Source: an uncultured Spirochaetia bacterium (GTDB lineage Bacteria; Spirochaetota; Spirochaetia; JABEVK01). Taken from it: DNA of 64,000 nt. A program made the translations under genes and the position numbers. The notes under the pieces were generated by a model that ran no database searches, was not told the origin of the DNA, and saw only the letters and a program-made list of their open reading frames with translations. Location of the stretch: contig CALGPJ010000009.1 in the NCBI GenBank assembly GCA_937960645.1, positions 68,522 through 132,521 of the forward strand, given 5' to 3'. Below, piece by piece: positions 1,981 through 49,237 of this stretch. Position 1 is the first letter of the stretch. Each line of letters begins with the position of its first letter.

Positions 1981-2010
1981 CTCAGTCTAAACCATGAATT
2001 GGCCATGGGG

Positions 2011-3432: not shown

Positions 3433-3447
3433 CCTACCTCCGAAATC

Positions 3448-30557: not shown

Positions 30558-32738
30558 CTAACGGGTAGACGCCGGGTTTTCGGTCGGTAAAACGAAGCCC
30601 GACAATTCCTGCTCGAGCTGCTTTCCCTGAGCCTTGAGATTTTCCGACATTTGCACCAGTTGACGGGCGATGCCCTTGGTGGCATCCGATCCCTGAGCGA
30701 GATGCACGATGTTTCGGCTCATTTCCTTGGCCCCATTGGACTGCTCGTTCACAGCGTTCTGGATGATGTCGAAGCTGTTGCGCAGGTTTTCGCTGAAATG
30801 CAGGAGCTCATGGAAGACCTTTCCCACCTCGTCGATGGCTGCGGCGATACCCATCACCGCAGTACTGACCGCTCCAATCTTTTCCCGGATGGATTGGATG
30901 GCAGCCTGCGAAGCTTGCCCGAGTTCCCCGATCTTTTCCGCGTCCCTGGTTCCTTTCTCGGTGATGCCGACGCCCTCCATCACCCCGTTACGCAGCTCTT
31001 CCAGAATATCCTGGATGTTGAGCACGGCTGCCTTGCTGTCGTCTGCCAGCTTTCTGATTTCCTCGGCGACTACCGAAAACCCCTTCCCGGCCTCCCCAGC
31101 GTGGGCGGCCTCGATGGCGGCATTCATGGCGAGAAGCCCCGTGTTGTCGGCAATCTGTTTGACCGTTGCCAGGATCTCGTCGATTTTCAGGGCCTGACGA
31201 CTGACCCCGCCCATGGTCTCGAAGGTCAAACTCATCTTTTCGGCGAGCTGGTTGGCCGTCTCCACGGATTGGGACAGGGTTGCCGCTCCCTCGGATGCCA
31301 CCTTTTCGGTAATCTCGGCCTGACCGATCACCTGCCGGGATTGTTCGGTGAGTTGGTTGATTTTGACGCCGATCTCCCGGATCTCCTGATTTTGTTTCAG
31401 GGTCATTTGGTACTGTTCGATCACCTTGTTCTCGACATGGTCGAGGGTCCGGGTGAACTCTTCCATGGTGCTGGAGATTTGCTCGAGGGAGCTGGCGTTT
31501 TCCAGGGTTTGGTTTCCCAGCATGCTGCCGGTGTCGTAGGTCTCGTTCGCGGATTTTTTGAGATCTTCTCCGATTCGCAGCAATTGGGCGATGATCCTAC
31601 CCAGGTTGAGGATGGTCTTGTTGGTGATCTCCGCCAGAAGGCCCAGTTCATCCCGGCTCAGGACGGGGATGACCAACGCCAGGTTTTTGGCCTCCATACG
31701 GCCAAAACCTTCATACACGGCGTTGAGCTGTTTGCGAAGGTTGCTCGCGACAATGATATTCAAAAGGATTGCCAGGGTGATCAAGACCAGGGCTGTCGCG
31801 AACATCAGGATCAGTGTTCGCACTCGGGCCGCGACTCGATCTTGAATGTCCTTAAAAACGGAGACTCCGGTTTCAAGGGCCAGATCGATGAGGGCGCCTG
31901 CCGACATCTCGATTCGTTTTCGGAATGTTTCGGTGGGTAAGTCATCGGGATTGTAGAGCACTTCGATCAATTCCAGAATAGAAGACTCGCGCTCCTGCCA
32001 AAATCGAGGCAAGCGCTCGGCATCGTGTCCAGGGTCCAGAATAGCCTCATGAATGGCATAATTCTCGAGCTGGCTTCGGATTTTGTTGTAGTACTCAGTG
32101 AACCAAAGACTAAAACTGTAGATTTCTCGATACAAGCCCGAATCGATGACGCCCGATCCCGTGTCCTCATTCAACACGAGGATGGCCAGGGACTCCAGCT
32201 TGGAAAGCACGTCCGGGATGAGACCCGAGTAGATTTGCAGCAAACTGTTGGTATGGGCTTCGGTATCTCTGCTAAACCCCGAGTTGACCGCCATTCGATG
32301 TTGAATTTCTTGCAAGGATAGAAATGCCTCGGTGTATGCCTGTCTCAGTTCGGAAACCGAATTGAAATTTTTGGAAATCGATAGCACGCGAGCCTCGAGT
32401 GTCTCCTTTCCAGAACCCTGGCCATCCTCTCCCAGGAGCCTCGAGAGGTTTCCTGCCTCTATTACCTCAAGACCTCGACGGAGTTTTTCGACAAGATCTG
32501 GGGACAAGGGACGCAATAAGCCGGAATTGGGGCGGCCAAGGGCGCTGTCCAGCACCGACTTCCGCAACCGATAAAGGGGGGAATAGAGTTCCAATCCGTC
32601 GAGCTCCCTCCTTGAATTATTCAAGTACTGTAGAGACTCCCCCAGCCAGAAAACCAGAAGCAGGCCCAGGGGGACCAGAAACCCCAGGGACGACAGGAAG
32701 AGTTTGAGCCGGATGCTGAAAATCCTGCGATGGGCCAT
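30558..32738 (-). CDS. Methyl-accepting chemotaxis protein (periplasmic sensor, HAMP, MCP signalling domain)
   Basis: Two TM segments; signalling domain motifs [34 protein letters not shown]. Confidence 0.85.
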
Positions 32739-32774
32739 CAGGACACTATAGCCCGCACCCCGTTTCGACGCAAC

Positions 32775-33857
32775 CTAGGGAGCCTCAAAATGTAACGTAA
32801 AAGCGCCCTGATCCGTGGTCACATTGAGGACATCGGGGCCGGCGGAGACGCTGGGCATCTTACGTAATTTAAATATGGAATACTCTCCGGTATTCAGATA
32901 AATGGGAAGGCTGCAGTCCAGATCGATCTTGCCATAGGCACTCGTGATCGATAAAACCGTTAACCCTCCCTGGCCGGTGTTGACAAAAAGGTGATCCCGA
33001 AACACAAGCGGCAGTGGAACGGCCAGACTGTCGCTCACAAAGTATTGACTGTCGTTCCGATCGACGATCTTCAGGATGGGAGAGGCGGGGAGTACATTTC
33101 CCTCAATGTTGACCGAAAGCGACGGATGATTGCTGCTGGTCACCGTCAGGACCCCCGTCACCAGACCGCTGGCGGTTCCGGCGGGAAATTGGATGCGAAA
33201 TTCGGGGCTGGTCTGGCCGCTCAGGATCGTGATGTTCGTAAAAGAACCGTGAATCACGAAGTCGGCTGCGAAAAAACTGAGACTGACCTGGGTGGCTGTC
33301 ATGTTCCCCTTGTTGAGAACTCGAAAGGGAACCTGCCAGGAATTGAAGTCGGCAGAGCGGTCCCCGCCGAATTGAAAAGTGTTGAGGTGATGATAGGTCA
33401 CGTAGCGGTCGTTCTTTCCCTGGATGACGACCAAATTGGGGCTGAGGCTTCCCGGTGGTTCCACGGTTCCCCTCAGGTCAACCCGGTAGGCACCGCGCGA
33501 AGTCCCGATCACGAGCTGAGCATGGTGGTTTCCCAGGGTGGTAGAATCGATGGAGATATGCATACCGAGACCTTGAGCAGGGGCCAAAGTCTGGGGCAAG
33601 GAGATCGACCCCGGAAGGAAACCACTCCCCTCCAAATCGACGGATTGGACGATGAGCTCGCGCTTGCCCTCGTTGGTGAAGCTCAAGTTTTGCTGGAGCA
33701 CGGTGTTGAGCTCGATGCTTCCAAAGTCAAGTCCCGAGGCCGGCTGAAAAACCAATCGCCCAGGGGGAAGATAGTTGGGCGAATAGGGATCCCAGCTGCT
33801 GTCCAGGGGATAGCAACCCAAAAGGATGAGAATGACCCCAAATACCCAAACCTTCAT
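32775..33857 (-). CDS. Hypothetical lipoprotein, beta-rich
   Basis: Signal peptide with lipobox ILLGCYP; 360 aa; no catalytic motifs. Confidence 0.5.
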   Translation of the reverse strand: MKVWVFGVILILLGCYPLDSSWDPYSPNYLPPGRLVFQPASGLDFGSIELNTVLQQNLSFTNEGKRELIVQSVDLEGSGFLPGSISLPQTLAPAQGLGMHISIDSTTLGNHHAQLVIGTSRGAYRVDLRGTVEPPGSLSPNLVVIQGKNDRYVTYHHLNTFQFGGDRSADFNSWQVPFRVLNKGNMTATQVSLSFFAADFVIHGSFTNITILSGQTSPEFRIQFPAGTASGLVTGVLTVTSSNHPSLSVNIEGNVLPASPILKIVDRNDSQYFVSDSLAVPLPLVFRDHLFVNTGQGGLTVLSITSAYGKIDLDCSLPIYLNTGEYSIFKLRKMPSVSAGPDVLNVTTDQGAFTLHFEAP

Positions 33858-33883
33858 GATTCTATCTTATCAGCAATCTGGCA

Positions 33884-35890
33884 TCAGGGGAAGTCTCGAG
33901 GGGGCTCGCGGGCCGAAAGTTCGCTTTCCAGTCGCAGTTTTCGTTTTCGCACCTCCTCGAGGGCACCGGCCTCACGAAAATCCTCCCATAGGAGCCAACC
34001 TCCGCCCAGGACCCCGGCCCCGCCCAGGATGCCTGCTGTCCAGGAGAGGGTGCTGTAGAGCGTGAGGGGCAGCCTCAGTTCTGCCACGGATTCGTTCTCG
34101 GTCGATTGGTACACCTGGTAGAGCTGGTTTCCGGAATAAATACTCCAGGCCATGATGCCTAGAAGGAGGGCGCCCGACCCGAGTCCCACACCTCCCTGCC
34201 AAAACCGGGATTCCTGTACGGAATCAGCCTTTTCCCTGAGTGTCAACTCGGCAAGGGCGGTTCGCAGTGTTTCTTCTTCGAGCTGTCGCGATCGGCGGCG
34301 GCTTTCAAGCTCCTGTACGATCTCCGGGGACAGGGCCTTCCTGATTTCCTCGAAATTTGCCAACCAGGGAGATCGTATCCAGTAGCCCCGGTCGAGATAG
34401 CGCACCAGGGATTCCTCGTGCCGGCTGGCCACCGTGACCGGCGCCGGCGGTTCAACGGAAATTGCCGAGATCGCCGCAAGCCCATCGTCCTCGATTTCTT
34501 CTACAGGGGGCGGTGCCGGAAGAGGTAATGAAACCACGGCTGCCTCCAGGCGAGGAGGACGGCTCACCAGCCGGCGCTCGCCCGGTACAAAGGGACCGAA
34601 AACTTCCTGGCTCTCTCGTTCCCATTGAATCAAGAAGGGCCCCGGATGGGCTCCTACATCGATGACCAGCGGTGTCATTCCCAGGAAAACGCCGTTGTGG
34701 TAAACACGGCCGGGAAGGGGCTCGCTTACGAGAACAAACCACGATACCGGGGATTCCGAGCTGGGAGAGGGTGCTTCCTGTTGACGACTCAAAGAGCGCA
34801 GGGCCGCCACGAAGGAATCATCCCCATTCCGAACCAGTATCTCTTCCTGCGCGGCGGCCTTTTCCGGCCGAGGCAACAGGACGCGATGCAAAAACACCAG
34901 ACGGCGTCTGGCTTCCTGAGAACCGGGGCCATCGGGATCCAGAAGGAGAAGCTGTTCCAGGCTCGCCTCGGCCGCAGCATATTCGCCGGACTGCTCGGCA
35001 ATCTCTGCCAGAACCCGAAGGGCGCTCACCTTGTCTTCTAAGGAGGCCGAACCGGCCAGGGTCTGTTGCGCCAGCTCTCGGGCCTTATCGAACTCCAACC
35101 GACGGACGTGTTCGCGCGCCCGTGCCGCTACGCTCCCCTCTACAGGCCTTTGGCGTAGAAGCAGAAAACGCCGAGCTGCCCCCCGCAGGCGGCTGCCCAC
35201 CGTGGCTTCTTCGGTGCCGGGATTTTCCCGTTCCAGCTTTTCCAGCAACGAAATCGCTTCCTGAAGGCGGCCCTGCATCAGCACACAAAAGGCCAGATGC
35301 AGTTCAAGGGGTGGGCGCAGGTAGGGGTCTTCCTCGATTTGCAGCAACTCGCGATAAATCAGCTCAGCATCTCGAAAACGCCTCAGCCGTTCCCTCAGGT
35401 AGGCTTCCTCCAAACGTCGCTGGCTCGCCGATGACTGTTCGACCCGGAGGGGGGCTTTTCCTAAAAGATTTCGCGCCGCATTGACGACCACGAGGGCAAA
35501 GGTGTTTTTGGGACCTGACTCTGGTTCGTTTTTTGTGTTTTGCAGCATCTTTTCCAAACGCGCCTCGACATAGAGCTGATCGGCGGAAGCATGGTTTTCG
35601 GCAAAACGCTCCAAAAGCAGGTCCATTCTTCCCAACATGAAAAGGTTTTGGTCGGAAACAGTCTCCAGCCGCACCGCTCGCAACGAGGTATTCACCTCCC
35701 CTTCCCGAAGCTCACGGAGCTCGGTGTTGAGCCAGACGGTGCTCGCCAGAAGTCCGGTAACGAGCACCAGGTACAGCGGAGCACGTCCAAGACTACGAAT
35801 CCTCGCCACGTAGGTCCTCTGCGTAGGAGGAACCCTCTTTGGCCTTGGCGAGCTTTTTGATCTGGGCCGCGGCCTGGACGAGTTGGCCAT
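33884..35890 (-). CDS. Membrane protein with TPR-like repeats and a PEGA-like domain
   Basis: N-terminal TM, helical repeat region, PEGA-like VYHNGVFLGMTPLVIDVGAHPGPFLIQWE, C-terminal TM segments. The first ATG overlaps the upstream gene by ~98 nt; an alternative GTG at 35812 with an AGAGGA SD is plausible. Confidence 0.5.
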   Translation of the reverse strand: MANSSRPRPRSKSSPRPKRVPPTQRTYVARIRSLGRAPLYLVLVTGLLASTVWLNTELRELREGEVNTSLRAVRLETVSDQNLFMLGRMDLLLERFAENHASADQLYVEARLEKMLQNTKNEPESGPKNTFALVVVNAARNLLGKAPLRVEQSSASQRRLEEAYLRERLRRFRDAELIYRELLQIEEDPYLRPPLELHLAFCVLMQGRLQEAISLLEKLERENPGTEEATVGSRLRGAARRFLLLRQRPVEGSVAARAREHVRRLEFDKARELAQQTLAGSASLEDKVSALRVLAEIAEQSGEYAAAEASLEQLLLLDPDGPGSQEARRRLVFLHRVLLPRPEKAAAQEEILVRNGDDSFVAALRSLSRQQEAPSPSSESPVSWFVLVSEPLPGRVYHNGVFLGMTPLVIDVGAHPGPFLIQWERESQEVFGPFVPGERRLVSRPPRLEAAVVSLPLPAPPPVEEIEDDGLAAISAISVEPPAPVTVASRHEESLVRYLDRGYWIRSPWLANFEEIRKALSPEIVQELESRRRSRQLEEETLRTALAELTLREKADSVQESRFWQGGVGLGSGALLLGIMAWSIYSGNQLYQVYQSTENESVAELRLPLTLYSTLSWTAGILGGAGVLGGGWLLWEDFREAGALEEVRKRKLRLESELSAREPPRDFP

Positions 35891-37103
35891 GGTGGGTGTA
35901 GGGGCGCCAACGGTTACTCACCACCGCCACCGAAATCGTCATCAGGGGAAAACGGGCCGGGGTTCCTTGACGGGTCACACTTTCAATATACCCGACTTTG
36001 GCGTCGTGCGGGGAATAAAACCGGGATATTTGTGAATCGAACTTTTGAATGAAGAGTTCGACATATTCCTTCCATCGCGAATAATCGATAACCACTACAT
36101 AATCGTCCCCGCCTTCGTGCCCGAGGAAGATCGAATGATCCCGGATCTCCTCTTTCGCCTGCATCAGGCAGTCCCGCACGAAGAGGATCACCTCGTCCCC
36201 TTTGGCAAAACCGTACTTGTCGTTGTAAGCCTTGAAATGGTCCAGGTCCATGTACAAGACAGCAAAGATCTGTCCGGCAGTCAATCTCGAGTCGATCTCC
36301 TGGACGATCCTTCGGTTGCCGGGCAGCCCCGAAAGAGGATTGGCTCCTCGGGCCTCGTCGTGCATTCGTGCGATCGCCGCCCCCATTTCGTTGAAGGACT
36401 GGGCCAACTCTCCGATTTCGTCGTTTTGATGGATACGTACACGGACCTCCAGATTACCCGCCTGGATGGTTCGGGTTGCCTGCACCAGGAAGCCCAGGGG
36501 CCGAAAGATCTTGACGAACAAATACAGCGCGAAACCACCGTTGACCAGGATTACCAGGATGATGACGAGGACCACCTGACGGTAGAGGCGGTTCATCCAC
36601 TCGCCGATATCCTCCATTTCCAGCTGAAACCGAAGTACCCCGAAGCTCACCGTGGTCAGCGGAAAACTCAGAAAAACCCGCAGGGCGCGCTCCTCCAGTT
36701 TTTGCACGATGGCCTTGCCCTCGAAGGCGCGGCGGGTCAGAACCTCGTTGATTTCCTGGAACTCGGCCTCTGTGGCCCACCCTCCCGGCTGCCCAGACAA
36801 CGCATCCAACAGGACCTCCCCGTTTTCGGAAAAAAGTCGGTAATTGGCCAGGTTCTGTTCCCGCAATTTCTGACGAAGGACCTCCAGATTGTTTGCCCAA
36901 TTGGGATATTCATCGAGGACACCCTGAAGAGAGGTAAGAATCTGGCGCGATTTGTCCTGGGTTTTCAGCACGGCATTTTGAACGATGAGGTCGGTCTGGT
37001 TTTCAAAAATCAGCACGACGAACACGGCGATCAGCGCGAGTGTCATCGCGATGTACATCAGACCGGTGCGAAACGCCAGACTGTTCAACAGTGTTCGGAT
37101 CAC
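35793..37103 (-). CDS. HAMP-GGDEF domain membrane protein (non-canonical GGDDY motif)
   Basis: N-terminal TM, HAMP, then LYMDLDHFKAYNDKYGFAKGDEVIL...FLGHEGGDDYVVVI. Confidence 0.75.
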   Translation of the reverse strand: MIRTLLNSLAFRTGLMYIAMTLALIAVFVVLIFENQTDLIVQNAVLKTQDKSRQILTSLQGVLDEYPNWANNLEVLRQKLREQNLANYRLFSENGEVLLDALSGQPGGWATEAEFQEINEVLTRRAFEGKAIVQKLEERALRVFLSFPLTTVSFGVLRFQLEMEDIGEWMNRLYRQVVLVIILVILVNGGFALYLFVKIFRPLGFLVQATRTIQAGNLEVRVRIHQNDEIGELAQSFNEMGAAIARMHDEARGANPLSGLPGNRRIVQEIDSRLTAGQIFAVLYMDLDHFKAYNDKYGFAKGDEVILFVRDCLMQAKEEIRDHSIFLGHEGGDDYVVVIDYSRWKEYVELFIQKFDSQISRFYSPHDAKVGYIESVTRQGTPARFPLMTISVAVVSNRWRPYTHHGQLVQAAAQIKKLAKAKEGSSYAEDLRGEDS

Positions 37104-37106
37104 GCC

Positions 37107-38114
37107 TTACCTCTCGAGGGGCTGGCCGAGTTGTTCCAGAAGATAATCCAGAAGGGGCTGAAAGGCTTCCTCGTATCGATGAAAATCGGCCAGGGTCACA
37201 TGGCCCATGCCACTCTGCCAGAAAACCCGATTGTTGGGAAATCCCCGGGCGACCAGGGGCAGGTTGTGGCGGAAATCCACCACCTGATCCTGCCAATCCT
37301 GGTGGAGCAGGACGGGGATATCGGGCCGGGGCTTAAAATCAAGACGGGATTCCCAACGGCCCAGGGCCAGAACCCAGGATACCGGAACGTTGTAGATGCC
37401 AACGAGGGGGTCAGGACTTACCAGGGGCTGCAGGCTCCTGAGCCACCACTGGTTCCACCAGGCCAGCCCCTGCCCCACCTCCCAGTACACGTGGCGGATC
37501 AGCGGTGCGCTCAAAATCAGATAGTCCCAGGGAAGTTCCCGGGTGCGGGACATTTCGATCACCGCGGAGGCACCGGTCGAATGCCCCAGCACGACCCAGG
37601 GTCGGGGCAGCAACGCGGATATTTCCTTTAGAGCCTCCAGCCAGGCGTTCAGGGCCTGGGTGTAATCCGAAAACTCGCCGATTCCGGCCCTCTCCCCGCT
37701 CGAAAGGCCGTGGCCAGGAAGGTCGAGGGCCGTGACCGACCACCCCTCGGCCAGCATCACCCGGATGATTCCGGAAAAGTTCCCCAGGCTGGCCAGGTAA
37801 CCATGCAAGACGAACAAGGTTCCGCGCGATGGTCCCGGGGGCAAAAACACCGCCGAGAACACGTCCCCCAGGGGATATTCGATCAAACGAAAGGCAGCAC
37901 GGTTTTTCCCTCCCCAGGGATGCACCACTTCACGAAATTTCCAGTGGACCACGTACTCTTCCAAAAAGGGTGGCATCGGGGCGTCGAGGTCCCGTATATC
38001 CCAGGCGCCAGTCGCGATTTCCCGCCTCAGCCCCATTCGGAAATCGAGGGTGGGATCGGGGGCGAGGGCACAACCGATCATCAAAAAACCGATGCAACCA
38101 TAAAACGATCGCAT
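37107..38114 (-). CDS. Alpha/beta-hydrolase-fold lipoprotein (lysophospholipase-like)
   Basis: Start ATG at 38114 overlapping upstream stop (ATGA); lipobox LMIGCAL; nucleophile elbow VLGHSTGAS. Confidence 0.65.
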   Translation of the reverse strand: MRSFYGCIGFLMIGCALAPDPTLDFRMGLRREIATGAWDIRDLDAPMPPFLEEYVVHWKFREVVHPWGGKNRAAFRLIEYPLGDVFSAVFLPPGPSRGTLFVLHGYLASLGNFSGIIRVMLAEGWSVTALDLPGHGLSSGERAGIGEFSDYTQALNAWLEALKEISALLPRPWVVLGHSTGASAVIEMSRTRELPWDYLILSAPLIRHVYWEVGQGLAWWNQWWLRSLQPLVSPDPLVGIYNVPVSWVLALGRWESRLDFKPRPDIPVLLHQDWQDQVVDFRHNLPLVARGFPNNRVFWQSGMGHVTLADFHRYEEAFQPLLDYLLEQLGQPLER

Positions 38115-39553
38115 CAGCCCTGGTTCCCCAAGGCGAACTTGTGAAAATCCTCGGCGGGAAGGGGCTTGCTGAAATAGTATCCCTGAAAAACCCGGCATCC
38201 GTTTTCGTAGAGCCATTTGACCTGCTCCCAACGTTCCACTCCCTCGACGATGATGCCCTTTTTCATTTGACGCGCCATCCCGATGATGGCCCGCACCGGT
38301 GCTGCGGAATTGACCTCTCCTGGAAGGTCATCGACGAAGCTCTTGTCGATCTTGATGATGGAGATGGCCAGGGTTCGAAGATAGCTCAAACTGGAATAAC
38401 CGGTACCGAAGTCATCCAGCATGATATGAAAGCCCATCCGCAGGAGGTTTTCGATCTTCTTGGCGCTCTCCGCCACGTTCTGCATGAGGGCACCTTCGGT
38501 GATCTCCAGCTTCACGTTGTGGTGGGGTATTCCGAGACGCTTGCAGAGTCGGATCGTATCGTGAATGATGTCCTCCTGGGTGAACTGGCGGGTGGAAAGG
38601 TTAATGCCCATTTGTAGAGACGAGAGCCCGATTTTCTGCCACTCGCCCAATTCCTGCAGGGACCTTCGTAGAATCCAGGCCCCTAAGGGGACGATCAGCC
38701 CCGTCTCCTCCGCAATCGGAACAAATTTTCCCGGAGAAAGAAAGCCCATACTGGGATGTTTCCAGCGGATGAGGGCTTCGGCTCCTGTGACCCGAAACTT
38801 TCCGGTTTCCGGATCCAGGAGTTCCACCTGGGGTTGGTAGTACATTTGAAACTGGGAATGCTTTAGATCCGAGGCGCTTTGAAGGGCCTGGAGCAAGCCA
38901 TTTTGAATCTCGATGCGCTCCATCTGTTCCATGCGAAGGCTGGGAGTGAATGTAAACACCGACACCTGTTGGCGAACAGCCACACTGAGCGCGATGTCGG
39001 TGCTTCGCAGAATCTCGGACTTGGTGTCGCCGTCTCTGGGATAGAGGGCCACTCCCAAATTGACTCGGATGGAGATATTGTATCCCCCGAGCACGTGCGA
39101 TTTTTCGGTATCGCGAACCAGCCGCTGAAGGGTCTGGTTGAACGTGGCCGAATCGGAAATATCGAAAAGTACGATCAAAAATTCATCGTCCCGGGTGTGG
39201 TACACCTTGCCGCGATTTTCGATCACTGACTGGATGCGGACTCCGGTCTGGTACAAAATCCATTCGGGTATCTTGCTGGAAAAGGTGCGGCGAACCAGGT
39301 TGAAAATTTCGTTGAGTTTCAGGAAACAAAGCGCTTTAGGCCGGTCATCTCTTTTCAGAATCTCGTGCAGCTGGGTTTGCATCACCACACCGTTCGGCAA
39401 ACCGGAATCGGGGTTGGTGACCAGTTGCTTGGCTAACCGCCGCCGCTCGTTAAGAATGACGTTGTACCTTTCGCGCAAAAGCTTAAATTTCTGCACGAGC
39501 CGTTGGTACTTGACCTGAGTTTCCAGCTTTTCAGACTGGTTCAACAGACCCAA
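38114..39553 (-). CDS. c-di-GMP phosphodiesterase: degenerate GGDEF + intact EAL domain
   Basis: EAL motifs EALIRW, DDFGTGYSSL, KIDKSFV, EGVE. The GGDEF position reads GGYNI (degenerate). Confidence 0.8.
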   Translation of the reverse strand: MGLLNQSEKLETQVKYQRLVQKFKLLRERYNVILNERRRLAKQLVTNPDSGLPNGVVMQTQLHEILKRDDRPKALCFLKLNEIFNLVRRTFSSKIPEWILYQTGVRIQSVIENRGKVYHTRDDEFLIVLFDISDSATFNQTLQRLVRDTEKSHVLGGYNISIRVNLGVALYPRDGDTKSEILRSTDIALSVAVRQQVSVFTFTPSLRMEQMERIEIQNGLLQALQSASDLKHSQFQMYYQPQVELLDPETGKFRVTGAEALIRWKHPSMGFLSPGKFVPIAEETGLIVPLGAWILRRSLQELGEWQKIGLSSLQMGINLSTRQFTQEDIIHDTIRLCKRLGIPHHNVKLEITEGALMQNVAESAKKIENLLRMGFHIMLDDFGTGYSSLSYLRTLAISIIKIDKSFVDDLPGEVNSAAPVRAIIGMARQMKKGIIVEGVERWEQVKWLYENGCRVFQGYYFSKPLPAEDFHKFALGNQG

Positions 39554-40879: not shown

Positions 40880-41947
40880 TTACTGGTTGTTCGGGTTTTG
40901 CTGAGCGGCGTCCTGGGGAGGGAAGTCCTCAATGGTCGCCATCTTGCGCATCTCGAGGGCACGGAGGACTTGCAAGCGGCCAAGGCGGCTCAATTCGAAA
41001 CTGCGGCGGGCAGATTCACGGGCGTTGAGGATGCCCCAGGTCCCCTCATCATCGATGTCTTCACGGAGGTTGAGCACAGCTCGATCGTAGATGATTTTGA
41101 TGTCTTTGAAGTAGCTGATAAAGTCACCGCCCTCGGTTGCGGCATCCCGGTGGATGATCAAACCCTTGAGCCGGATGTAGGGAGCGCTGCGAGGATAGAG
41201 GGGAAGGATGCGCAGTTCACGGTTTCTCACCTCGGTCTGATACTGGGGGTTTCTCCATTGCAGGGTGTTCCAGCCATCCGACTGCAAATACCCGAGGAAG
41301 ATGGTCTGCTGTTGTGCATTCTCGTTCTCCAGCACGATGCTGAGACCGTGGGGGTAGTTACGGCCGAGGTAGTTGACCTGGATGTCTCGGATGACTCCGA
41401 CATTTTTGACGACACCGTAACCGACAAATTGATCACCAGGTTTGCTTTCGGGACCGTTCTGGCCTTGCTGCCGGGGAAGAGTGGCGTAGGCCGGAATGTC
41501 GAAAGGAGGCACGACCATGGCCGAGCTGGGGACCCGGTAGAGCGGGAAATGTACCCGGACGCCCATCACCGTTTGACCACCGTACCTGCTGGCGTCATCC
41601 TTGACAGCGGCTTCCCGGATTTGGGACTGAACGACGTTTTGTATCACACGGGCAGAGCTGGTCAGGCGGACTTCCCAGTTTCGAATTCGGAGGGAGGTCT
41701 TCATGACAGCCTTATCCGCAGCGGTAAAGCTTGTCCCCGCCTGGGTGCTGTAGTCGATCAAAGTCTGACCGTGTTCTTTTCTCATGTCTTCGGGCAAGTT
41801 GTCGCGGCCGGCGATTTCCGTGTCACCTACCAACTGGGAAAAATCGATCAAGGTAGCCAAACCGGTAAAGTCATCGGTTTGCTGGGCGACCAGACTCCCT
41901 GCGGCAAACATCGTCGATAACATAAACAAGGTTGCCAAGCGTTTCAT
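40880..41947 (-). CDS. flaA: Flagellar filament outer-layer (sheath) protein FlaA of periplasmic flagella
   Basis: Sec signal peptide; motifs recalled as FlaA-family hallmarks (GYGVVKNVGVI, FISYFKDIKIIYDRAVL). Strong sigma70 promoter and AAGGAG SD upstream, terminator downstream. Confidence 0.6.
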   Translation of the reverse strand: MKRLATLFMLSTMFAAGSLVAQQTDDFTGLATLIDFSQLVGDTEIAGRDNLPEDMRKEHGQTLIDYSTQAGTSFTAADKAVMKTSLRIRNWEVRLTSSARVIQNVVQSQIREAAVKDDASRYGGQTVMGVRVHFPLYRVPSSAMVVPPFDIPAYATLPRQQGQNGPESKPGDQFVGYGVVKNVGVIRDIQVNYLGRNYPHGLSIVLENENAQQQTIFLGYLQSDGWNTLQWRNPQYQTEVRNRELRILPLYPRSAPYIRLKGLIIHRDAATEGGDFISYFKDIKIIYDRAVLNLREDIDDEGTWGILNARESARRSFELSRLGRLQVLRALEMRKMATIEDFPPQDAAQQNPNNQ

Positions 41948-41988: not shown

Positions 41989-42016
41989 ATTATACGGTAG
42001 GACAAGGGTTTGTCAA
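41989..42016 (-). promoter_or_regulatory. Consensus sigma70 promoter TTGACA-N16-TATAAT for flaA
   Basis: Reverse complement reads cgTTGACAaacccttgtcctaccgTATAATtgg ~45 nt upstream of the flaA ATG. Confidence 0.65.
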
Positions 42017-42051: not shown

Positions 42052-42561
42052 TTATTCATCGACCTGGGTAAACTCGGTATCGTATTCGTGGCCTTCGATG
42101 GTGACAACCACTTCCTTGAGACTCGGGAAATTGTAAAGTACCCCTTTTTTCAGGAGCTCGATCCCTCGATGAAAATCGATGCGTGATTCGTAATCGCGTT
42201 CGAAGGACTTGGCGTTTAAATCGATGTAGACGATACCCTCCGCGACGAAAACCGTCTTGACGCGGGTCTGCAGGGGCAAAATCCGGAAGAGCTTGTTGAG
42301 CGAGGGCCCGAGGAGATACTCGCGGACATACAACGAGACGGCTTGCTCGTCGGAAGACTGGACCGGGAGCGCACGTTCCTCGGCTCCTGTTCCCTCGACG
42401 TAGTGCCGGGGAAAGAAAAAGATCCTCCTCTGCATGCGTCCCGGGTTGAAAAACCAAATCAAAACGGAAAGGAAAAGGATCCCTCCTAACACGAATAGGT
42501 GGATGGTTTGTCGGCTCTTGAGGTTCCTACTCATCGGCGGAACAATACCATCAAAAGCCAC
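42052..42561 (-). CDS. Hypothetical membrane-anchored protein (possible GerMN-like domain), last gene of modification operon
   Basis: N-terminal TM (IHLFVLGGILFLSVLIWFF); SLYVREYLLGP segment; overlaps ATP-grasp gene stop. Confidence 0.4.
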   Translation of the reverse strand: MAFDGIVPPMSRNLKSRQTIHLFVLGGILFLSVLIWFFNPGRMQRRIFFFPRHYVEGTGAEERALPVQSSDEQAVSLYVREYLLGPSLNKLFRILPLQTRVKTVFVAEGIVYIDLNAKSFERDYESRIDFHRGIELLKKGVLYNFPSLKEVVVTIEGHEYDTEFTQVDE

Positions 42562-43981
42562 GCTTCGGCAAGTCCTGAGTCAGACAGTCGAGGCGGTACA
42601 AGGCCCCTGGGATTCCGCCCGCCTCCAGGGCCTCCATGACTTTTTTCCGGAGATTTTTGGGCAATTTGCGCCATAAATCTGGCTCGATTCGCTGGATGTC
42701 CTCGAGTCTGTCCCGCCAGAGGATGCCGTACCAGTCCTGACCATCTCGAAATGCGGGCTGTTGGGGGTTGGAGAGCCAGTCTTCGGTCTGCGGATGGGGT
42801 GCCTGGAGCCTCGGAAACAGGAAGCGTCGATATTCTTTTAACCTCGAACGTGCCGCCTCGAGATCGGTCTGTGCCACGATGACATTCGCCAGTTTTTCCA
42901 CGTTGTTTCTCGGGAAGGTGGTAAGGTCCCCGGTTTTTCGAAGAAAAAAGATCTGTTCCCCCTCCCGCATCACGGGGCCGCCGTTCAAGCCGAACCACCC
43001 CATCAATGTGCCCGGAATACCGATGATGGCCCCCTCCACCACGGAACGTTCGAGAAAATAATTGGGGTTTTTCGGTTCCTGCCCCAGGGCCAGGAGAATG
43101 GCCTCCCGAACCGGGCTCAGCCCCGAAGCCAGGGGAAAGGTCCAGCCGCTCATGAAGCCCCCACTCAGTCGGGCGGCCACCTCTCCCACCACCGGCCGAC
43201 CCTTGTGCCACTTCAGATCCCCCTTGACCGCTCCCCACTCGAGTCCCAGGGCTCGAGCCGAGCTTTCCAGACAGTCCCAAAGCTCATTCTGTACCCTGGA
43301 AGCGGCATGGGTAGGAAAGCTGTGGCCCATTTCCACAAAGTATGGCGGAAAGTGGATGTCCCGATCGGCCAGCCCCCTCCGATAAAACCCCTTGGGGGTG
43401 ATGAGCGCATCCAGGCTGAACTCGGGTCCCTCGATGTAGTCCTCAACGATGGCCCGGCCCTGGCGGCTGTGGGCCAGAGCCCCCTGAACGGCCTGTTCGA
43501 GATCGGAAGCCGTGTCGACCCGCCGCACCCCACGGGCGCCCATGTTGTCCACGGGTTTGACCACGGCGGGAAAGTCGATTCCCCGAAAATCCCGGTGCTC
43601 CGAGTCCAAAACTTTGAACCGGGGAACCGGAATCCCCGCCTGGGCGAGCCTCTGCCGCATCAGGGCCTTGTCCTTCGCCGCCAGGGCCGCCTGGTAGGAG
43701 TGGGACCAAAGCCCGAACTCCTCTGCAATGTGTGCCACCGTGGTGGAAAAATCCGTACCCACCGTGAGCACCCCCCGGTAGGTGCCGCCCCATCGCCGAA
43801 GTGCTGCGACACAGGCAGCCTCGTCGCTAATGTCGCATTCCAGCCAGGAATCGGCCAGACGGCGGGCCACGGAGTTCGGATCGCGGTCCAACCCCAGGGT
43901 AGGGATTCCCATATCCCGAGCTTCCCGGTAGACGGGCTGTTGCATGAGGCCGCTCCCAACCACGATCAGGTGGCCCGTCAT
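42551..43981 (-). CDS. ATP-grasp domain carboxylate-amine ligase with C-terminal extension
   Basis: Start ATG at 43981 (GGAGG SD) overlapping upstream stop. ATP-grasp core DFPAVVKPVDNMGARGV...AIVEDYIEGPEFSLDAL. Confidence 0.75.
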   Translation of the reverse strand: MTGHLIVVGSGLMQQPVYREARDMGIPTLGLDRDPNSVARRLADSWLECDISDEAACVAALRRWGGTYRGVLTVGTDFSTTVAHIAEEFGLWSHSYQAALAAKDKALMRQRLAQAGIPVPRFKVLDSEHRDFRGIDFPAVVKPVDNMGARGVRRVDTASDLEQAVQGALAHSRQGRAIVEDYIEGPEFSLDALITPKGFYRRGLADRDIHFPPYFVEMGHSFPTHAASRVQNELWDCLESSARALGLEWGAVKGDLKWHKGRPVVGEVAARLSGGFMSGWTFPLASGLSPVREAILLALGQEPKNPNYFLERSVVEGAIIGIPGTLMGWFGLNGGPVMREGEQIFFLRKTGDLTTFPRNNVEKLANVIVAQTDLEAARSRLKEYRRFLFPRLQAPHPQTEDWLSNPQQPAFRDGQDWYGILWRDRLEDIQRIEPDLWRKLPKNLRKKVMEALEAGGIPGALYRLDCLTQDLPKRGF

Positions 43982-45687
43982 GGGAGCCTCCGGGCGTAGA
44001 TTTCCATCGTGTCGCCCCACCTGAGCCACCGCTGCAAAGCAGCCAGACCCGCCGTCCACCATCGACCCAGGGGGCGCCCCAAAAGCCGTTCGGGGTGGAT
44101 GCCGGTGGGCTCGATCCACCGAATTTGAAAATCGTGCCGGTCAAGAAGACGGCGCGCCGTGACCGGCTCCCAGAGCGTGTAGTGATCGGTGGGGCTTTCT
44201 CGAAAAAAGCGGCCGGGGTGGAATCGGGCCGTGAGACCCGCGGCGTTGGGGGTGGAGAGGAGCAGCCACCCCTGTGGACGCAGGAGGTAGCGCAGCCCCT
44301 GAAAGAGTGTCTGCAGATCGGGAAAGTGTTCGATCACGTACCAGAGGCTCACCGCATCGAAGCTCCTTTCGGGCCAGTTCTTTTCCCAGCCCACCACCCC
44401 CAGGTTGAGGCAGGTGGCCGGCACGCCCAGCTCCCGCTGGACCCAGGCCACCGCCTGAGGGTTGACATCGGCGCCCTCGACCACCATGCCCTTTTTTTGG
44501 GCGGCGGCCAGAAAGGGGCCGTAAGCACACCCGAGATCCAACAGACGCCGCCCTTGGAGGGGACCGCTCAACCGCTGAAGGACTGTCAGGCGTCGAGCGC
44601 CCAGGGCCTCGATGTTGGGAAAATCCTGCAGGTAAGTTTTGCCGTACTGGCTTCGATATTCGTCCTCGAAGTACTGCGGTCCGTAGTCTTTTTCGGGTAC
44701 CAGCCACGGCAGGAGGTAGAGGAAACCACAGTCCCGGCATCGGTAAAAGGTCCTGTCCTTTTGTCGGTTCACCACCCGAGCTCTGGCGGAACCACAGGCC
44801 GGGCAAAATCGGCCGTGACTGCGGAACCGCCGCCACAGCGCATGCGGCTCCTCGGGTTCCATGGGCTGGTGGTAGAGCTGTGACAGCCCCCTGGGATCTT
44901 GAATTTTTTCGAGGAACCGGACGAGTTTTCGGACAGATACCCCGCGAACTCCCAGCAGGGGCCAGCCTTTTCGCCGGGATAGCCGGGCATGGTACCGGCT
45001 GGGCTCCACCAGGAGAAAGGGCACCCCCTGGTTCCGGCACTCGTGGGCGGTGATGCCGTAGGAGCAGAAAACCAGATCGAAGTGCTGCAAATGATCCCGA
45101 AGCCGCTGGGGCCGGGAAAGCAGCGAGGGGCGGCGGCCGTGCAGCAGGGGAAGGTCCGAGCGGTCCTGCCAGGGCCCCTCGAGCACACTCACCTCCCACG
45201 TTAGGTCGGGTAATCGGTTCAAGCTCTTCAGGAGGCGGACGGCCAAATGGTGGCGGTCGGTTCCCCCGAAGGCCACCAGGACTCTGGTGACAGGCTTCGG
45301 TGTGTAGACCCGGTGGGGCCCCAGGTCCATGAGCCCGGGAGCCTGGCAATTGGGAGGGATTCGGCTGGTATTACCCAGGCTGTCCACCAGGAAGTCCATT
45401 CGGGAACGGCAGGCCGCCCCCTCGTCCCAGCCCACCAGGGGCCAGCCGCGCTCGGCAAAGGCGCGGTACAGGTCCCTTTCCGTTTTCCGTCGGTCGAAGA
45501 CGATCAGGTCCCAGGGCTCCTGAAAGGGGTCGTGGGTCTGCCAGAGCTCCTCGGAGATTTGCTCGGGGCGGCCCTCCGGGGCCCAGAGCCGCCCGCCGAC
45601 GGCACGGGCCGCTTCCCGGCAGCGGTTGAGGTGGCCCCACCCCCCCTCTGGCCGAACCGAGGGCACGAAGAGGATTTTTCTAGCCAC
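43978..45687 (-). CDS. Fusion protein: PseG/SpsG-like UDP-sugar hydrolase (GT-B fold) + Zn-ribbon class I SAM-dependent methyltransferase
   Basis: N-terminal KILFVPSVRPEGGWGHLNRC (PseG-like). C-terminal CPACGS...CRDCGF zinc ribbon followed by methyltransferase motif I LLDLGCAYGPF. Confidence 0.65.
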   Translation of the reverse strand: MARKILFVPSVRPEGGWGHLNRCREAARAVGGRLWAPEGRPEQISEELWQTHDPFQEPWDLIVFDRRKTERDLYRAFAERGWPLVGWDEGAACRSRMDFLVDSLGNTSRIPPNCQAPGLMDLGPHRVYTPKPVTRVLVAFGGTDRHHLAVRLLKSLNRLPDLTWEVSVLEGPWQDRSDLPLLHGRRPSLLSRPQRLRDHLQHFDLVFCSYGITAHECRNQGVPFLLVEPSRYHARLSRRKGWPLLGVRGVSVRKLVRFLEKIQDPRGLSQLYHQPMEPEEPHALWRRFRSHGRFCPACGSARARVVNRQKDRTFYRCRDCGFLYLLPWLVPEKDYGPQYFEDEYRSQYGKTYLQDFPNIEALGARRLTVLQRLSGPLQGRRLLDLGCAYGPFLAAAQKKGMVVEGADVNPQAVAWVQRELGVPATCLNLGVVGWEKNWPERSFDAVSLWYVIEHFPDLQTLFQGLRYLLRPQGWLLLSTPNAAGLTARFHPGRFFRESPTDHYTLWEPVTARRLLDRHDFQIRWIEPTGIHPERLLGRPLGRWWTAGLAALQRWLRWGDTMEIYARRLP

Positions 45688-46345
45688 GAAGCGCCTCGAT
45701 GAGCCGTGCCGTATCCAGAGGCGGGCTCCACCCGTTTTGATCGACCAGCTCTTGCAATCTTTTCAGGTCCTCCGGGGTATCCACGGTGACCCGCTCCTGG
45801 GGGCCAAAATAAACCGGGGGAACGGTGGGCCGCCCCACCCGAAACAGCTCGGGATTGTGGTAAATAAATGGTGTGACGTGCTCCCTCTCGTAGGCGTCGG
45901 GATGGCTCTCCCAGGCGAGCTTCAGGGCATCGGCGCGCACCGCCTCGGTCCCCACGCCCAGGGGGGCCATCTGGTAAGCAAACAGGTCCCAGCCGCCCTC
46001 CTCCAACGCCCTCAGGTTGAGTTCCGCCAGATGGGCGGAAACGAAGGGGTTGTCGCCGGTGGCGCGCAACAAACTTTGCACTCCGTAATGCATCGCGGCC
46101 TGGGTGAATCGGTCCAGCACATCCTCCGGATCCCCGACGTAGAGGTCCCAGCCCTCCCGATCGGTGTAAGGCAGCAGGGCAGATCGGCTGGCGGAATCGG
46201 TCAGCACCGCGTGCACGTCCGCTCGCACTTCCCTGAGGGATCGTAGACACCATTCGAAAAGGGTCAATCTTCCCAGGGATAACAGCGCCTTGCCAGGGAG
46301 CCGGCTCGATCCCATCCGTACCTGTAAAAACACGGCCGTACTCAT
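45680..46345 (-). CDS. Cytidylyltransferase (CTP_transf_3; SpsF/PseF/NeuA-like)
   Basis: Start ATG at 46345 (ATGA overlap, GGAGG SD). MSTAVFLQVRMGSSRLPGKAL is the hallmark N-terminal motif. Confidence 0.7.
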   Translation of the reverse strand: MSTAVFLQVRMGSSRLPGKALLSLGRLTLFEWCLRSLREVRADVHAVLTDSASRSALLPYTDREGWDLYVGDPEDVLDRFTQAAMHYGVQSLLRATGDNPFVSAHLAELNLRALEEGGWDLFAYQMAPLGVGTEAVRADALKLAWESHPDAYEREHVTPFIYHNPELFRVGRPTVPPVYFGPQERVTVDTPEDLKRLQELVDQNGWSPPLDTARLIEALRG

Positions 46346-47289
46346 CCCCACTCCCTCCACAGCTGTTTCAAGGCCACGGCGTCCATCCGAAACCGGTAGC
46401 TGAATCCCCTGATCCAGCGCCGAACACTGTGAAAGGTCTTCCAAGCCTTGAAAGGCGAGAGACCGCTGCGAAGCAAAAAGGGGAAAAAAAGTCGGAGCGG
46501 CAGCTCGATATGATCCAGATTGTACTGCGGCACGATGTTTTTGAGATAAAAACGTTCGTAGCCGTTGATGGGGGTGGTATCCTCCAGAGGGGGATCGCTC
46601 AGGTACTGGATGCGGAACCCCTTCAGGCATCGGATGCTCTCCCCCCAGAGGTGGACCCGAAAGCCCCAGTCTGCCTTCTGCCAATAGGCGCTGGCGATCG
46701 AGGGATCGAAGCCCCCCGTTTGCAGGAAGGTGTTCGGTCGGTAAAACCCCGTGAGGTCCATGGGGTAGAGGCTTTCGTGGAGCTCGTTTTGGGAAAAGAT
46801 GTTGATGAATTGCAGCACATTTCCCCTTTTGAGGGGGACGATGAGGTGGGGAATTTCCTCTCCCTTGGGCGATTTCAGCTCCGGGATGTAAACCAGGGCG
46901 GGTTTGTCCCAATCGCCCCGAACGAGTTTTTGAGGCGGAAAAGGTTCCAGTACCTCCATGCTGTCGGTAATGACCAGCATCCACTCGCTCCGAGAGACTC
47001 CCAGGGCCATCTGCATCCAAAGAGGCTCGGTGATGGGTAGCGAGGGAATGAGGAACTTGACGGGGAGATCGTTGGGAAAGGGCTCGCTCGGCACGGAACC
47101 GGGATCGCGCCGCAAAATGACCTCACGGGCCCCATAGGCCACCAGCTTGCGGGCAAGTTCCAGCTGAAAGTACACGGGGCCCCGGGGCAGGATGATGGCC
47201 CCCCAGGACAAGCCCTCGTGGATGGGCAGGGGGTTGAGATTTCCCGTCAGGGTGTAGGATGCATTAAAAGACGAACTGAAAGTACTCAT
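46342..47289 (-). CDS. Hypothetical protein (315 aa) in modification operon; no motif recognised
   Basis: Translationally coupled on both sides; could be the transferase of the system (untested). Confidence 0.4.
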   Translation of the reverse strand: MSTFSSSFNASYTLTGNLNPLPIHEGLSWGAIILPRGPVYFQLELARKLVAYGAREVILRRDPGSVPSEPFPNDLPVKFLIPSLPITEPLWMQMALGVSRSEWMLVITDSMEVLEPFPPQKLVRGDWDKPALVYIPELKSPKGEEIPHLIVPLKRGNVLQFINIFSQNELHESLYPMDLTGFYRPNTFLQTGGFDPSIASAYWQKADWGFRVHLWGESIRCLKGFRIQYLSDPPLEDTTPINGYERFYLKNIVPQYNLDHIELPLRLFFPFLLRSGLSPFKAWKTFHSVRRWIRGFSYRFRMDAVALKQLWREWG

Positions 47290-48709
47290 GACAGGACCGG
47301 CATTCTTCCGGGTAACGTTCTTCCTGATGGGCGAGCATCCACCCCGTACCCCGCTCCCACACAGCCGCGGGATCTTCCTCGAGCAGGTTTCCCCAGTATA
47401 CCTCGCCCTGGGGATATTGATGGCAACTCACCACCCTGCCGTCGGCCAGGCTGTGGAGTCCCCGTTGCAGATGCCAGCAGGGGTGGCGCTTCCAGGGAGA
47501 GAGGTCCACGGTCCGGCGATTCGGCAGCCGTCCGGCCATATCGTTGTAGCCCACCACCAGGGGCTTGTACCCCTCCTCCTTGACCTGGATGTAGAAGTTT
47601 TCCACGTGATCCTCGGTGAGGTCGCACCGCGTGGTCTGGAGATACACCCTGCCCGCAAACATGTCACGCAGCGTTTGAGCCGTTTGACGCATGACCTCGA
47701 AGCCCTCTCCGCGCAGCTGTCGATACAGCTGCGGTTCCCAGGCATCGGCCTCCACGATCCAGGTGATCTTTCCTTTTAGCCGGCCGAGCTCGTTGAGCAC
47801 CTCGGATGTCCATCCCAGCCCGGATGTTTCCACGACCAGCTCGAAGCCCAATTCCAGGGCGGAGCGAAGAGCCGCGACCGCGTGGGGATAGAGGGCAACC
47901 TCCCCCCAGAACCCCGGAAGGAGCACCCCGCCTCCCATCCAGCGGCCCACACGCTCGAGCATTCGGCGTAAATCTTCGAGGGGCAAATCGACCCGCGTCG
48001 TAGAATAAAAGCGCGGGTCCGAGTAGGCGGGGACCTGCGCCACCGCATTGGTCCATTGCATCTTCCAGTACGCCGGCAGGGTGCGCTGGGAAACTCGGTC
48101 CCGCGCGACTTCGGACAGAAACCGATCCAGGGACCATTGGGCCCTCTCCAGGAATCGGCTGATCAACAGCCGGTTGCGTGGGCAATCGTCGAAGAAGGTG
48201 ATCCGCCAGGTGCGCAGATCGATGGGGCTCAATAGAGTTTCAACATCGAAGTGGTTGACGTGGTGGAGAAGGCAGGAGAAAAGTCCCTGCCGATCGGGCA
48301 GTTCCTCCGCTTGCTCCAGGGCAGCGATCCCCTGAAGGGCGAAGGTGCTGACCGCTTCGGGTGCCAGACCCAGGGGATAACAGTCCGCAAAGGTGTAGTC
48401 GGCCTTGTGCTGACGATGGGTCTGCCAGATTTGGCGCGAAAGGTCTTCCCGAAGAAGGGGCGCATCGGCCGGAATCAGCATCAGGTGCTCTTCGTTTCCG
48501 CTGGCCTGCAGCAGGGCTTGCAGCCAACCGCGGCGATCCGACCATTCCGCCGGAATGACGTCCGCCTGCCACCAGGACGGGGGTCTGCCCAACCAGGCGA
48601 CTTTCTTCACGAAATCCCAGGAGGCGACACGGCGGGCTAAATCCCGGGTTTGGGGCAAAACCCCCTCCCCCAGGCTGCCGTCCGGGGTCCAAAAAAGGCA
48701 ACTGACCAT
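47264..48709 (-). CDS. SPASM-domain protein with radical-SAM-like core lacking the CxxxCxxC triad (spiro-SPASM-like)
   Basis: GGGVLLPGFWGEVALYP (GGEPLL-like) and ELVVETSG but no CX3CX2C; C-terminal Cys cluster CWH...SCH...ECRSCHEY (SPASM/twitch-like). Confidence 0.55.
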   Translation of the reverse strand: MVSCLFWTPDGSLGEGVLPQTRDLARRVASWDFVKKVAWLGRPPSWWQADVIPAEWSDRRGWLQALLQASGNEEHLMLIPADAPLLREDLSRQIWQTHRQHKADYTFADCYPLGLAPEAVSTFALQGIAALEQAEELPDRQGLFSCLLHHVNHFDVETLLSPIDLRTWRITFFDDCPRNRLLISRFLERAQWSLDRFLSEVARDRVSQRTLPAYWKMQWTNAVAQVPAYSDPRFYSTTRVDLPLEDLRRMLERVGRWMGGGVLLPGFWGEVALYPHAVAALRSALELGFELVVETSGLGWTSEVLNELGRLKGKITWIVEADAWEPQLYRQLRGEGFEVMRQTAQTLRDMFAGRVYLQTTRCDLTEDHVENFYIQVKEEGYKPLVVGYNDMAGRLPNRRTVDLSPWKRHPCWHLQRGLHSLADGRVVSCHQYPQGEVYWGNLLEEDPAAVWERGTGWMLAHQEERYPEECRSCHEYFQFVF

Positions 48710-48763: not shown

Positions 48764-49237
48764 ATGGCCCCCCTGCTGCTTTTGTCCCTCCTGGCCCTGC
48801 TCGGCTGTGCCGCCCCGGCCTCCGGACGGATCGAAGTGATGCTGCGAACCAGCGGCTGGCGATGGGTCCGAGATCAGGATGCCGACTTTCAGGTTCAGGT
48901 GCCGCTTCCAAACGGGCGCCGCCAGAGGGTGGTGATCCGGCAAAAGGTTTTCGCCACCGAGCGCGGCCAGATGCGGGAAATCCTCAGCAAGGCGGAACAG
49001 CTGAACAAGGCCCCGGAGAGCGGCCTGCTCCGGCACCTTTTGGAGGCCTCGGCCGAAATCGAGGTTTGGGGCCACTGGGGGCTCATCAAAAATCCCGCTT
49101 CGGGGGAATATATCATCGCCTACATCATCAAGATTCCCGAAAACTCTGGTCAAAGCCTGTTACGCCGAGCGGTTCTGGAAGCAGCCCATGTCGCCGACCA
49201 CTGGGAAAGGCTCACCTCCGGTCTGGACCAGTACTAG
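48764..49237 (+). CDS. Hypothetical lipoprotein
   Basis: Likely start ATG at 48764 (MAPLLLLSLLALLGCAAP, lipobox); listed ORF starts further upstream. Confidence 0.45.
   Translation: MAPLLLLSLLALLGCAAPASGRIEVMLRTSGWRWVRDQDADFQVQVPLPNGRRQRVVIRQKVFATERGQMREILSKAEQLNKAPESGLLRHLLEASAEIEVWGHWGLIKNPASGEYIIAYIIKIPENSGQSLLRRAVLEAAHVADHWERLTSGLDQY

Follow-up and report, generated by a model that had tools for sequence, protein, structure and literature searches.

What can a radical S-adenosylmethionine (SAM) protein still do once the three cysteines that hold its SAM cluster are gone, and why would it be kept? The question is raised by a gene on the reverse strand (47264-48709) of the stretch of DNA analysed here, hereafter the window (64,000 nucleotides of contig CALGPJ010000009.1, from an uncultured Spirochaetia bacterium). 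Its sequence shows the encoded protein, of 481 residues, to belong to the spirochaete spiro-SPASM family (TIGR04321), as a derived member that is radical-dead. A first-pass annotation, made from the letters of the window alone, had proposed the family, noticed the missing CX3CX2C triad and pointed to a C-terminal group of four cysteines. These three points hold, with two amendments: the loss of the triad is secondary and recurrent, and the C-terminal domain is a Twitch rather than a SPASM domain.

Family assignment and absence of the SAM-cluster triad

The gene is a maximal open reading frame (ORF) with an ATG start, and the same gene call and an identical 481-residue protein are found in two independent public assemblies. 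The protein scores 335.9 bits with the NCBIfam model TIGR04321 ('spiro-SPASM protein'), whose cutoff is 250 (E 4e-100; model positions 71-510 out of 510), and leaves the first ~70 model positions unmatched; the family assignment proposed at first is thus the right one. NCBI names the relatives 'spiro-SPASM protein' as well; the family is already catalogued and named in databases, and uncharacterised. The general SPASM models report 18.7 for TIGR04085 (cutoff 27) and 21.7 bits for PF13186 (Pfam gathering threshold, GA, 21.5). PF04055 (radical SAM) does not return any Pfam match for this protein, whereas precomputed PF04055 matches are present on its cluster-bearing homologues. Relatives are encoded in 574 of 599 candidate stretches from species-representative genomes. 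Eighty loci of species-representative spirochaete genomes were kept, which together with the window form a species-level set of 81 sequences; a wider set comprises the 150 best representatives at 50% identity and three close relatives, with counts given over 151, and an alignment of 26 database homologues was used as well. The AlphaFold2 (AF2) model was built from 26 homologues. Of the 80 relative-bearing loci, 79 are labelled spirochaete and the remaining one 'uncultured bacterium', in agreement with the suggested restriction of the family to spirochaetes.

The cysteines of the protein lie at positions 4, 110, 146, 176, 362, 411, 429, 470 and 473. No CX3CX2C is present in any of the three frames of its strand, as had been noticed at first, nor in any ORF of at least 250 residues across the window. 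At the exact place where 11 of the 26 database homologues have GCPQxCxYCPYP, this protein reads NAVAQVPAYSDP. A degenerate remnant of the cluster loop is delineated at residues 220-232 (TNAVAQVPAYSDP; 48014-48052, reverse strand), with V223, P227 and S230 in the three cysteine columns. As far as sequence tells, the protein cannot bind a SAM cluster, and with valine, proline and serine in place of the ligands SAM cleavage is therefore predicted to be impossible. A displaced but intact triad, or a frameshift that would restore it, was found neither in any frame nor in the two identical assemblies, which excludes a frameshift or assembly artefact as the cause of the missing motif. The strings quoted by the first-pass annotation are all located in the protein, HLMLIPADAPLL at residues 75-86, GGGVLLPGFWGEVALYP at residues 259-275, and CWH, SCH and ECRSCHEY within residues 411-476. 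A second, compensating radical SAM gene was also considered and rejected, as none is encoded in the window and, near the cassette of genes that the spiro-SPASM gene opens, cluster-less loci have no ORF cluster of their own.

A fusion of three domains

The AF2 model is confident over the whole chain (predicted local distance difference test, pLDDT, 91.7; predicted template modelling score, pTM, 0.86), and the predicted structure shows a three-domain fusion of a cytidylyltransferase fold, a radical-SAM partial barrel and a BtrN-like Twitch domain. Sequence-profile comparison gives BtrN as the best PDB match (E 5.7e-11), the barrel and the C-terminal cysteine region being aligned as separate segments. 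The N-terminal domain (residues 1-205; 48095-48709, reverse strand) has a nucleotide-diphospho-sugar-transferase-type fold, SpsF/PseF-like in the AF2 model and in fold searches, which gives substance to the vague nucleotidyltransferase likeness first ascribed to the N-terminal ~130 residues. It is devoid of the N-terminal nucleoside triphosphate (NTP)-binding loop: conservation within the family is lacking over the first ~60 residues, and the R..S.RLP.K loop of the neighbouring cytidylyltransferase is not present there. Its conserved block comprises D82-x-P84, H98, Y105-T-F-A-D109, P112, G114, E118, R140, N152, D155, E157, D164, R166 and R169, while the NTP_transf_3 (MobA-like) model stays below threshold on residues 63-110 (22.2 against a GA of 27). 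The predicted fold is shown to be of the nucleotide-binding type, and the domain cannot be a canonical nucleotidyltransferase. That it arose by recent duplication of the neighbouring cytidylyltransferase gene was rejected, the profile comparison being marginal (E 0.006, 6% probability).

Residues 206-400 (47510-48094, reverse strand) adopt the partial (beta/alpha)6 TIM barrel of radical SAM enzymes without the SAM-cluster ligands, and the barrel suspected at first is thus present in both the confident model and the fold searches. The GGEPLL-like string GGGVLLPGFWGEVALYP does exist, but the real equivalent of the radical SAM GGE motif is W268-G269-E270 (47900-47908, reverse strand), which aligns with the GEP of BtrN, PqqE and SkfB and is at least 85% conserved in the cluster-bearing and cluster-less groups alike. 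The last domain, residues 401-481 (47267-47509, reverse strand), exhibits the pattern C411-x12-G424-x4-C429 ... C470-x2-C473, the protein stopping 8 residues after C473, and a sequence-profile alignment places C429, C470 and C473 in the auxiliary-cluster region of BtrN. The seven-cysteine SPASM motif CX9-15GX4C...CX2CX5CX3C...C is not found: only CX12GX4C and CX2C are present, with no further conserved cysteine in the 81 relatives. A Twitch domain represents a truncated form of the SPASM domain, homologous to its first half and providing the ligands of one cluster (PMC9012708). By this definition, four cysteine ligands for one cluster indicate a Twitch and not a seven-cysteine SPASM domain, in line with the invariant cysteines and the BtrN alignment, and with a PF13186 score right at threshold. 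The cysteines first described as SPASM-type are thus indeed invariant in the relatives, but belong to a one-cluster, BtrN-like Twitch rather than to a full SPASM domain.

The top fold matches include SuiB, SkfB and PqqE, with DesII, BlsE, viperin and SpeY also high-ranking. The first three might evoke a maturase of peptides that are synthesised ribosomally and modified post-translationally (RiPPs), as are most SPASM-domain proteins, the missing motif being then an assembly or frameshift artefact. We give this explanation next to no weight: no frame contains CX3CX2C, the sequence is identical in two assemblies and orthologues exhibit the same loss, the N-terminal domain has a cytidylyltransferase fold and is not a RiPP recognition element (RRE), and the cassette neighbours are all sugar or glycan enzymes (61-74 of 80 loci), with no precursor-peptide gene.

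Recurrent loss of the triad across the family

In the species-level set, CX3CX2C is intact in 60 of the 81 sequences and absent from 21. The scaffold without SAM cluster proposed at first therefore holds for the window protein but not for the family as a whole, 60/81 of which keep the triad. The wider set (n=151) contains 66 strict triads, ~6 variants in spacing and ~79 sequences without triad. C411, C429, C470 and C473 are invariant in 81/81 species-level sequences, and all four are kept in 148 of the 151 representatives at 50% identity, beyond what chance would give; a lack of conserved cysteine ligands in homologues, named at the outset as a possible refutation, is thus not the case. Because the barrel is homologous to that of cluster-bearing enzymes, the cluster-less state is derived, and the presence of the triad at the same column in 60/81 and ~72/151 sequences makes its loss secondary and recurrent. 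Parsimony on a neighbour-joining (NJ) tree of the 81 sequences reports at least 4 independent changes of triad state; on an NJ tree of 225 sequences, built without the motif columns, it reports 27, a figure inflated by tree error. The residues replacing the triad vary from clade to clade, and one locus (L049) has lost the third cysteine only. Loss of the SAM cluster is, as the larger tree shows, common in the spiro-SPASM family.

At the SAM-cluster site, six family representatives (P0229, P0246, P0262, P0284, P0276 and P0280) have cysteines in non-canonical spacings (CX8CX2C, CX4CX2C and CX3CX4C), which may represent functional variants or intermediates toward loss. Adaptation to oxic habitats as the reason for losing an oxygen-labile SAM cluster is weakened as a candidate, since the cluster-less members include Treponema rectale and several metagenome-assembled genomes (MAGs) of Treponema sp.

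Constraint retained after the loss

Eighty-seven positions reach 85% conservation or more in cluster-bearing and cluster-less members alike. They include W268-G269-E270, E294-T-S-G-x-G-W300, D322, Y329, R333, Q358 and R361, and cover the entire Twitch signature PCWHLxRD ... CxxC(D/H)EY, whereas, the triad aside, ~17 positions alone are specific to the cluster-bearing group. Of the positions conserved in the latter, cluster-less members keep 88% in the N-terminal domain, 79% in the barrel and 86% in the Twitch domain. The window protein is their most diverged representative, with 76%, 58% and 69%, respectively. The protein as a whole thus remains under purifying selection after the triad is lost, and the barrel is the region that relaxes most, matching what a loss of radical catalysis predicts.

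This divergence, together with the 26-nt overlap with the next gene, might suggest a decaying relic, a pseudo-enzyme near loss that is kept solely because its frame overlaps the downstream glycosyltransferase gene and drives its translation. Such a relic is highly improbable: the full-length ORF is intact, the AF2 model is confident along its length, the 87 positions and the four Twitch cysteines are conserved across independently cluster-less lineages, and orthologues at 47-72% identity share length and motifs.

The pattern of constraint also bears on two explanations in which the protein would still be an enzyme. In one of them, which takes up the redox role suggested by the first-pass annotation, the Twitch [4Fe-4S] cluster carries out non-radical redox or Lewis-acid chemistry on a sugar (for example dehydratase-like, or electron transfer), with the barrel as active site. 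The four cysteines are kept in 81/81 and 148/151 sequences while those of the SAM cluster are lost repeatedly, many barrel residues remain conserved in cluster-less members, and whether auxiliary clusters act in catalysis is still under discussion (PMC9012708). However, ligation by cysteines only, as in BtrN, would leave the cluster fully ligated, with no open Fe site for a substrate (PMC9012708), and the stronger relaxation of the barrel (0.79 against 0.86-0.88, and 0.58 in the window protein) runs contrary to what would be expected of an active site that had newly become important; we consider this explanation unlikely. In the other, the N-terminal domain is a real enzyme in all members, a phosphosugar or nucleotide transferase or a hydrolase with a non-canonical NTP site, the barrel and Twitch domains serve regulation or redox sensing, and the loss of the triad is nearly neutral. 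This domain indeed holds the densest invariant block of acidic and basic residues (D82, H98, D109, E118, R140, N152, D155, E157, D164, R166 and R169), is the best-retained region after triad loss (0.88), and its motifs align with GDxPLID, G-x-x-x-E and RE-H of PDB entry 6OEW. It is nevertheless doubtful as an active enzyme, as the triphosphate-binding loop (R-x-x-S-x-R-L-P-x-K in the neighbour) is absent, the first ~60 residues lack conservation family-wide, and the gene two places downstream already codes for a canonical cytidylyltransferase.

Proposed role

We favour, with about even confidence, a glycan-pathway subunit that is non-radical, binds nucleotide sugars and bears Fe-S, descended from an ancestral radical step that was abandoned. 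The ancestral enzyme would have carried out a radical step of the BtrN/DesII/BlsE type, its N-terminal domain holding the substrate, a nucleotide-linked sugar or sugar acid; the reaction would most likely have been a two-electron oxidation in which the Twitch cluster served as electron acceptor. This step would have been given up in the window lineage and independently in many others, and the protein kept because another of its roles, binding and presenting the nucleotide-activated intermediate, was indispensable. It would now act as an Fe-S-stabilised subunit together with the adjacent GT-A glycosyltransferase. The four-cysteine site probably holds a structural, or at most an electron-relay, [4Fe-4S] cluster. 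An engineered BtrN variant, C16A/C20A/C23A, still holds its auxiliary [4Fe-4S] cluster (PMC9012708), so that an auxiliary cluster of the Twitch kind can outlast the removal of the SAM cluster, and such a state is physically reasonable.

Several points weigh against this proposal. The binding or scaffold role is argued from the pattern of conservation, the sequence of the four-cysteine site would fit Fe-S or zinc alike, and SAM or another nucleoside could still be bound for chemistry of some kind, given that the WGE and ETSG motifs are retained. A full-text literature search for 'spiro-SPASM' returned no paper, and neither the window nor the flanks of the 80 loci contain a gene for a nonulosonic-acid synthase, dehydratase or aminotransferase.

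A broader proposal, quite improbable in our view, is that the indispensable function of the whole family resides in the Twitch Fe-S and cytidylyltransferase-like domains, with SAM radical chemistry as an option, the protein being an Fe-S-dependent nucleotide-sugar enzyme of a type so far undescribed, or an obligatory glycosyltransferase subunit, that makes a spirochaete-specific glycan. If so, the glycan might decorate periplasmic-flagellar or envelope proteins, and the family would offer a natural system in which an 'auxiliary' cluster has its own function.

What auxiliary clusters do in SPASM/Twitch radical SAM enzymes is a matter of debate (PMC9012708); the repeated removal of the SAM cluster, while the Twitch cysteines are essentially never lost, points to a radical-independent role of the Twitch domain and of the nucleotide-binding domain fused to it.

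The glycan cassette and its surroundings

The spiro-SPASM gene opens a tightly packed five-gene set on the same strand, with overlaps of 26, 4 and 8 nt, and is translationally coupled within it. Its stop is overlapped by 26 nt by the gene of a 315-residue partner (46342-47289, reverse strand), which belongs to no Pfam or NCBIfam family and returns no PDB sequence match. Its fold is nevertheless predicted with confidence as GT-A, closest to the polypeptide GalNAc-transferases (protein O-glycosyltransferases), and it looks like an unannotated glycosyltransferase family. The two genes adjoin in 74 of the 80 loci, and theirs is the tightest association of the cassette, since in some termite-gut Treponema adjacency is kept for this pair only. 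The third gene (45680-46345, reverse strand) is called as a 221-residue SpsF/PseF-like cytidylyltransferase (CTP_transf_3; PF02348 E 9e-23, 6OEW E 4e-16) with an intact R-x-x-S-x-R-L-P-G-K loop. It is followed by a 569-residue fusion (43978-45687, reverse strand) of a GT-B/PseG-like domain, a zinc ribbon and a class I SAM methyltransferase (Methyltransf_23 E 7e-23; a weak TIGR03590 PseG hit, E 0.001; UbiG-like O-methyltransferases in the PDB). Lastly, an ATP-grasp ligase is encoded at 42551-44119 (reverse strand; ATP-grasp_4 and ATP-grasp_3; L-amino-acid ligase 3VOT, E 4e-13), coordinates that are those of the maximal ORF, the true start being probably downstream. Gene order is colinear in 61-74 of the 80 spirochaete loci, whether or not the genome encodes a triad-bearing member. 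The spiro-SPASM gene marks a five-gene glycan cassette conserved across Spirochaetota.

On one side the cassette is flanked by a conserved, divergent xseA, and on the other by conserved genes for Amidase_3, GerMN and FlaA proteins. The latter trio, Amidase_3, GerMN (Germane) and FlaA, follows the cassette in ~50 loci (in related loci at ~16.2-19.3 kb); in the window, the GerMN gene (42052-42561, reverse strand) directly abuts the ATP-grasp gene and the amidase is missing. On the xseA side, a predicted lipoprotein of 157 residues (48764-49237, forward strand; lipobox LLALLGC, no family match) heads the divergent xseA-xseB operon, ~54 bp away from the spiro-SPASM start. The closest genome relative, a sulfidic-cave MAG (L001, DYOB01000063.1), exhibits 47-51% identity across the whole cassette; its label 'Borreliella garinii' is doubtful on habitat and cassette content.

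The remainder of the window consists of housekeeping genes, none of them for the synthesis of nonulosonic acids. An ORF of 849 residues (1822-4371, forward strand) has MurB domains (FAD_binding_4 and MurB_C) confined to its last ~270 residues and no Pfam match in its N-terminal ~580 residues; the ORF is over-extended or else encodes an unusual fusion.

Tested links to flagella

Downstream of the cassette, 50 of 81 loci, the window among them, have a FlaA gene. Immediately upstream of flaA in the window (FlaA flagellar sheath gene, 40880-41947) stands a perfect 12/12 sigma-70 consensus, TTGACA-16 nt-TATAAT, at 41989-42016 (reverse strand); because of this promoter of its own, flaA is probably transcribed independently of the glycan cassette. 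Downstream of flaA, genes for a spermidine synthase-like protein, GGDEF-EAL, HAMP-GGDEF and TPR proteins and a methyl-accepting chemotaxis protein (MCP; all within 30558-39553, reverse strand) suggest, with flaA, a neighbourhood of motility and cyclic di-GMP (c-di-GMP) functions.

In Treponema denticola, TDE1716-TDE1713 are co-transcribed with flaA (PMC9481697). The equivalence of the cassette with these genes was rejected: TDE1716, found in a metagenome contig (L132) via the primers of that study (PMC9481697), is a 125-residue glyoxalase-like protein, and no cassette protein matches its contig. The flagellar proteins of spirochaetes bear unusual glycans, without which motility is lost, and the cassette is therefore a reasonable candidate for studies of glycan pathways. 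The flagellin glycan of T. denticola is a 2-methoxy-4,5,6-trihydroxy-hexanoyl pseudaminic-type acid. That the cassette builds this glycan is speculation, which its ATP-grasp, O-methyltransferase, PseG-like and PseF-like parts would fit; no direct link between cassette and flagella was established.

Comparison with known systems

The radical SAM enzymes DesII, BlsE, viperin and SpeY have nucleotides or nucleotide-linked sugars as substrates, with precedents among thymidine diphosphate (TDP)-sugars, cytosyl-glucuronate and cytidine triphosphate (CTP). Their chemistry fits a nucleotide-binding domain fused to the barrel; however, all four keep the CX3CX2C cluster and none is fused to a cytidylyltransferase fold, unlike the window protein. 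As compared with the SpsF/PseF-type cytidylyltransferases (CTP_transf_3; 6OEW from Leptospira borgpetersenii), the N-terminal domain differs by the missing NTP-binding loop and by a Pfam score below gathering, a true enzyme of this type being encoded separately within the same cassette.

BtrN, the 2-deoxy-scyllo-inosamine dehydrogenase of the butirosin pathway (PDB 4M7T), is the archetypal Twitch radical SAM enzyme. It cleaves SAM with a cluster held by C16, C20 and C23, whereas the window protein, at ~15% identity, has valine, proline and serine in those columns; BtrN, moreover, is devoid of the N-terminal cytidylyltransferase-fold domain. Its C16A/C20A/C23A variant, likewise a Twitch protein without SAM cluster, is the laboratory analogue of the state found here in nature. 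The variant is a catalytically dead construct, while the cluster-less spiro-SPASM state is natural, recurrent, selected and set in a conserved operon. The 'radical SAM domain protein' of Treponema primitia ZAS-2 (P0137), a cluster-bearing TIGR04321 member, has the same three domains, the four Twitch cysteines and the gene partner. Such cluster-bearing members, unlike the window protein and its clade, have GCPQxCxYCPYP in place and presumably function as radical SAM enzymes; cluster-bearing and cluster-less orthologues form matched natural pairs for experiments.

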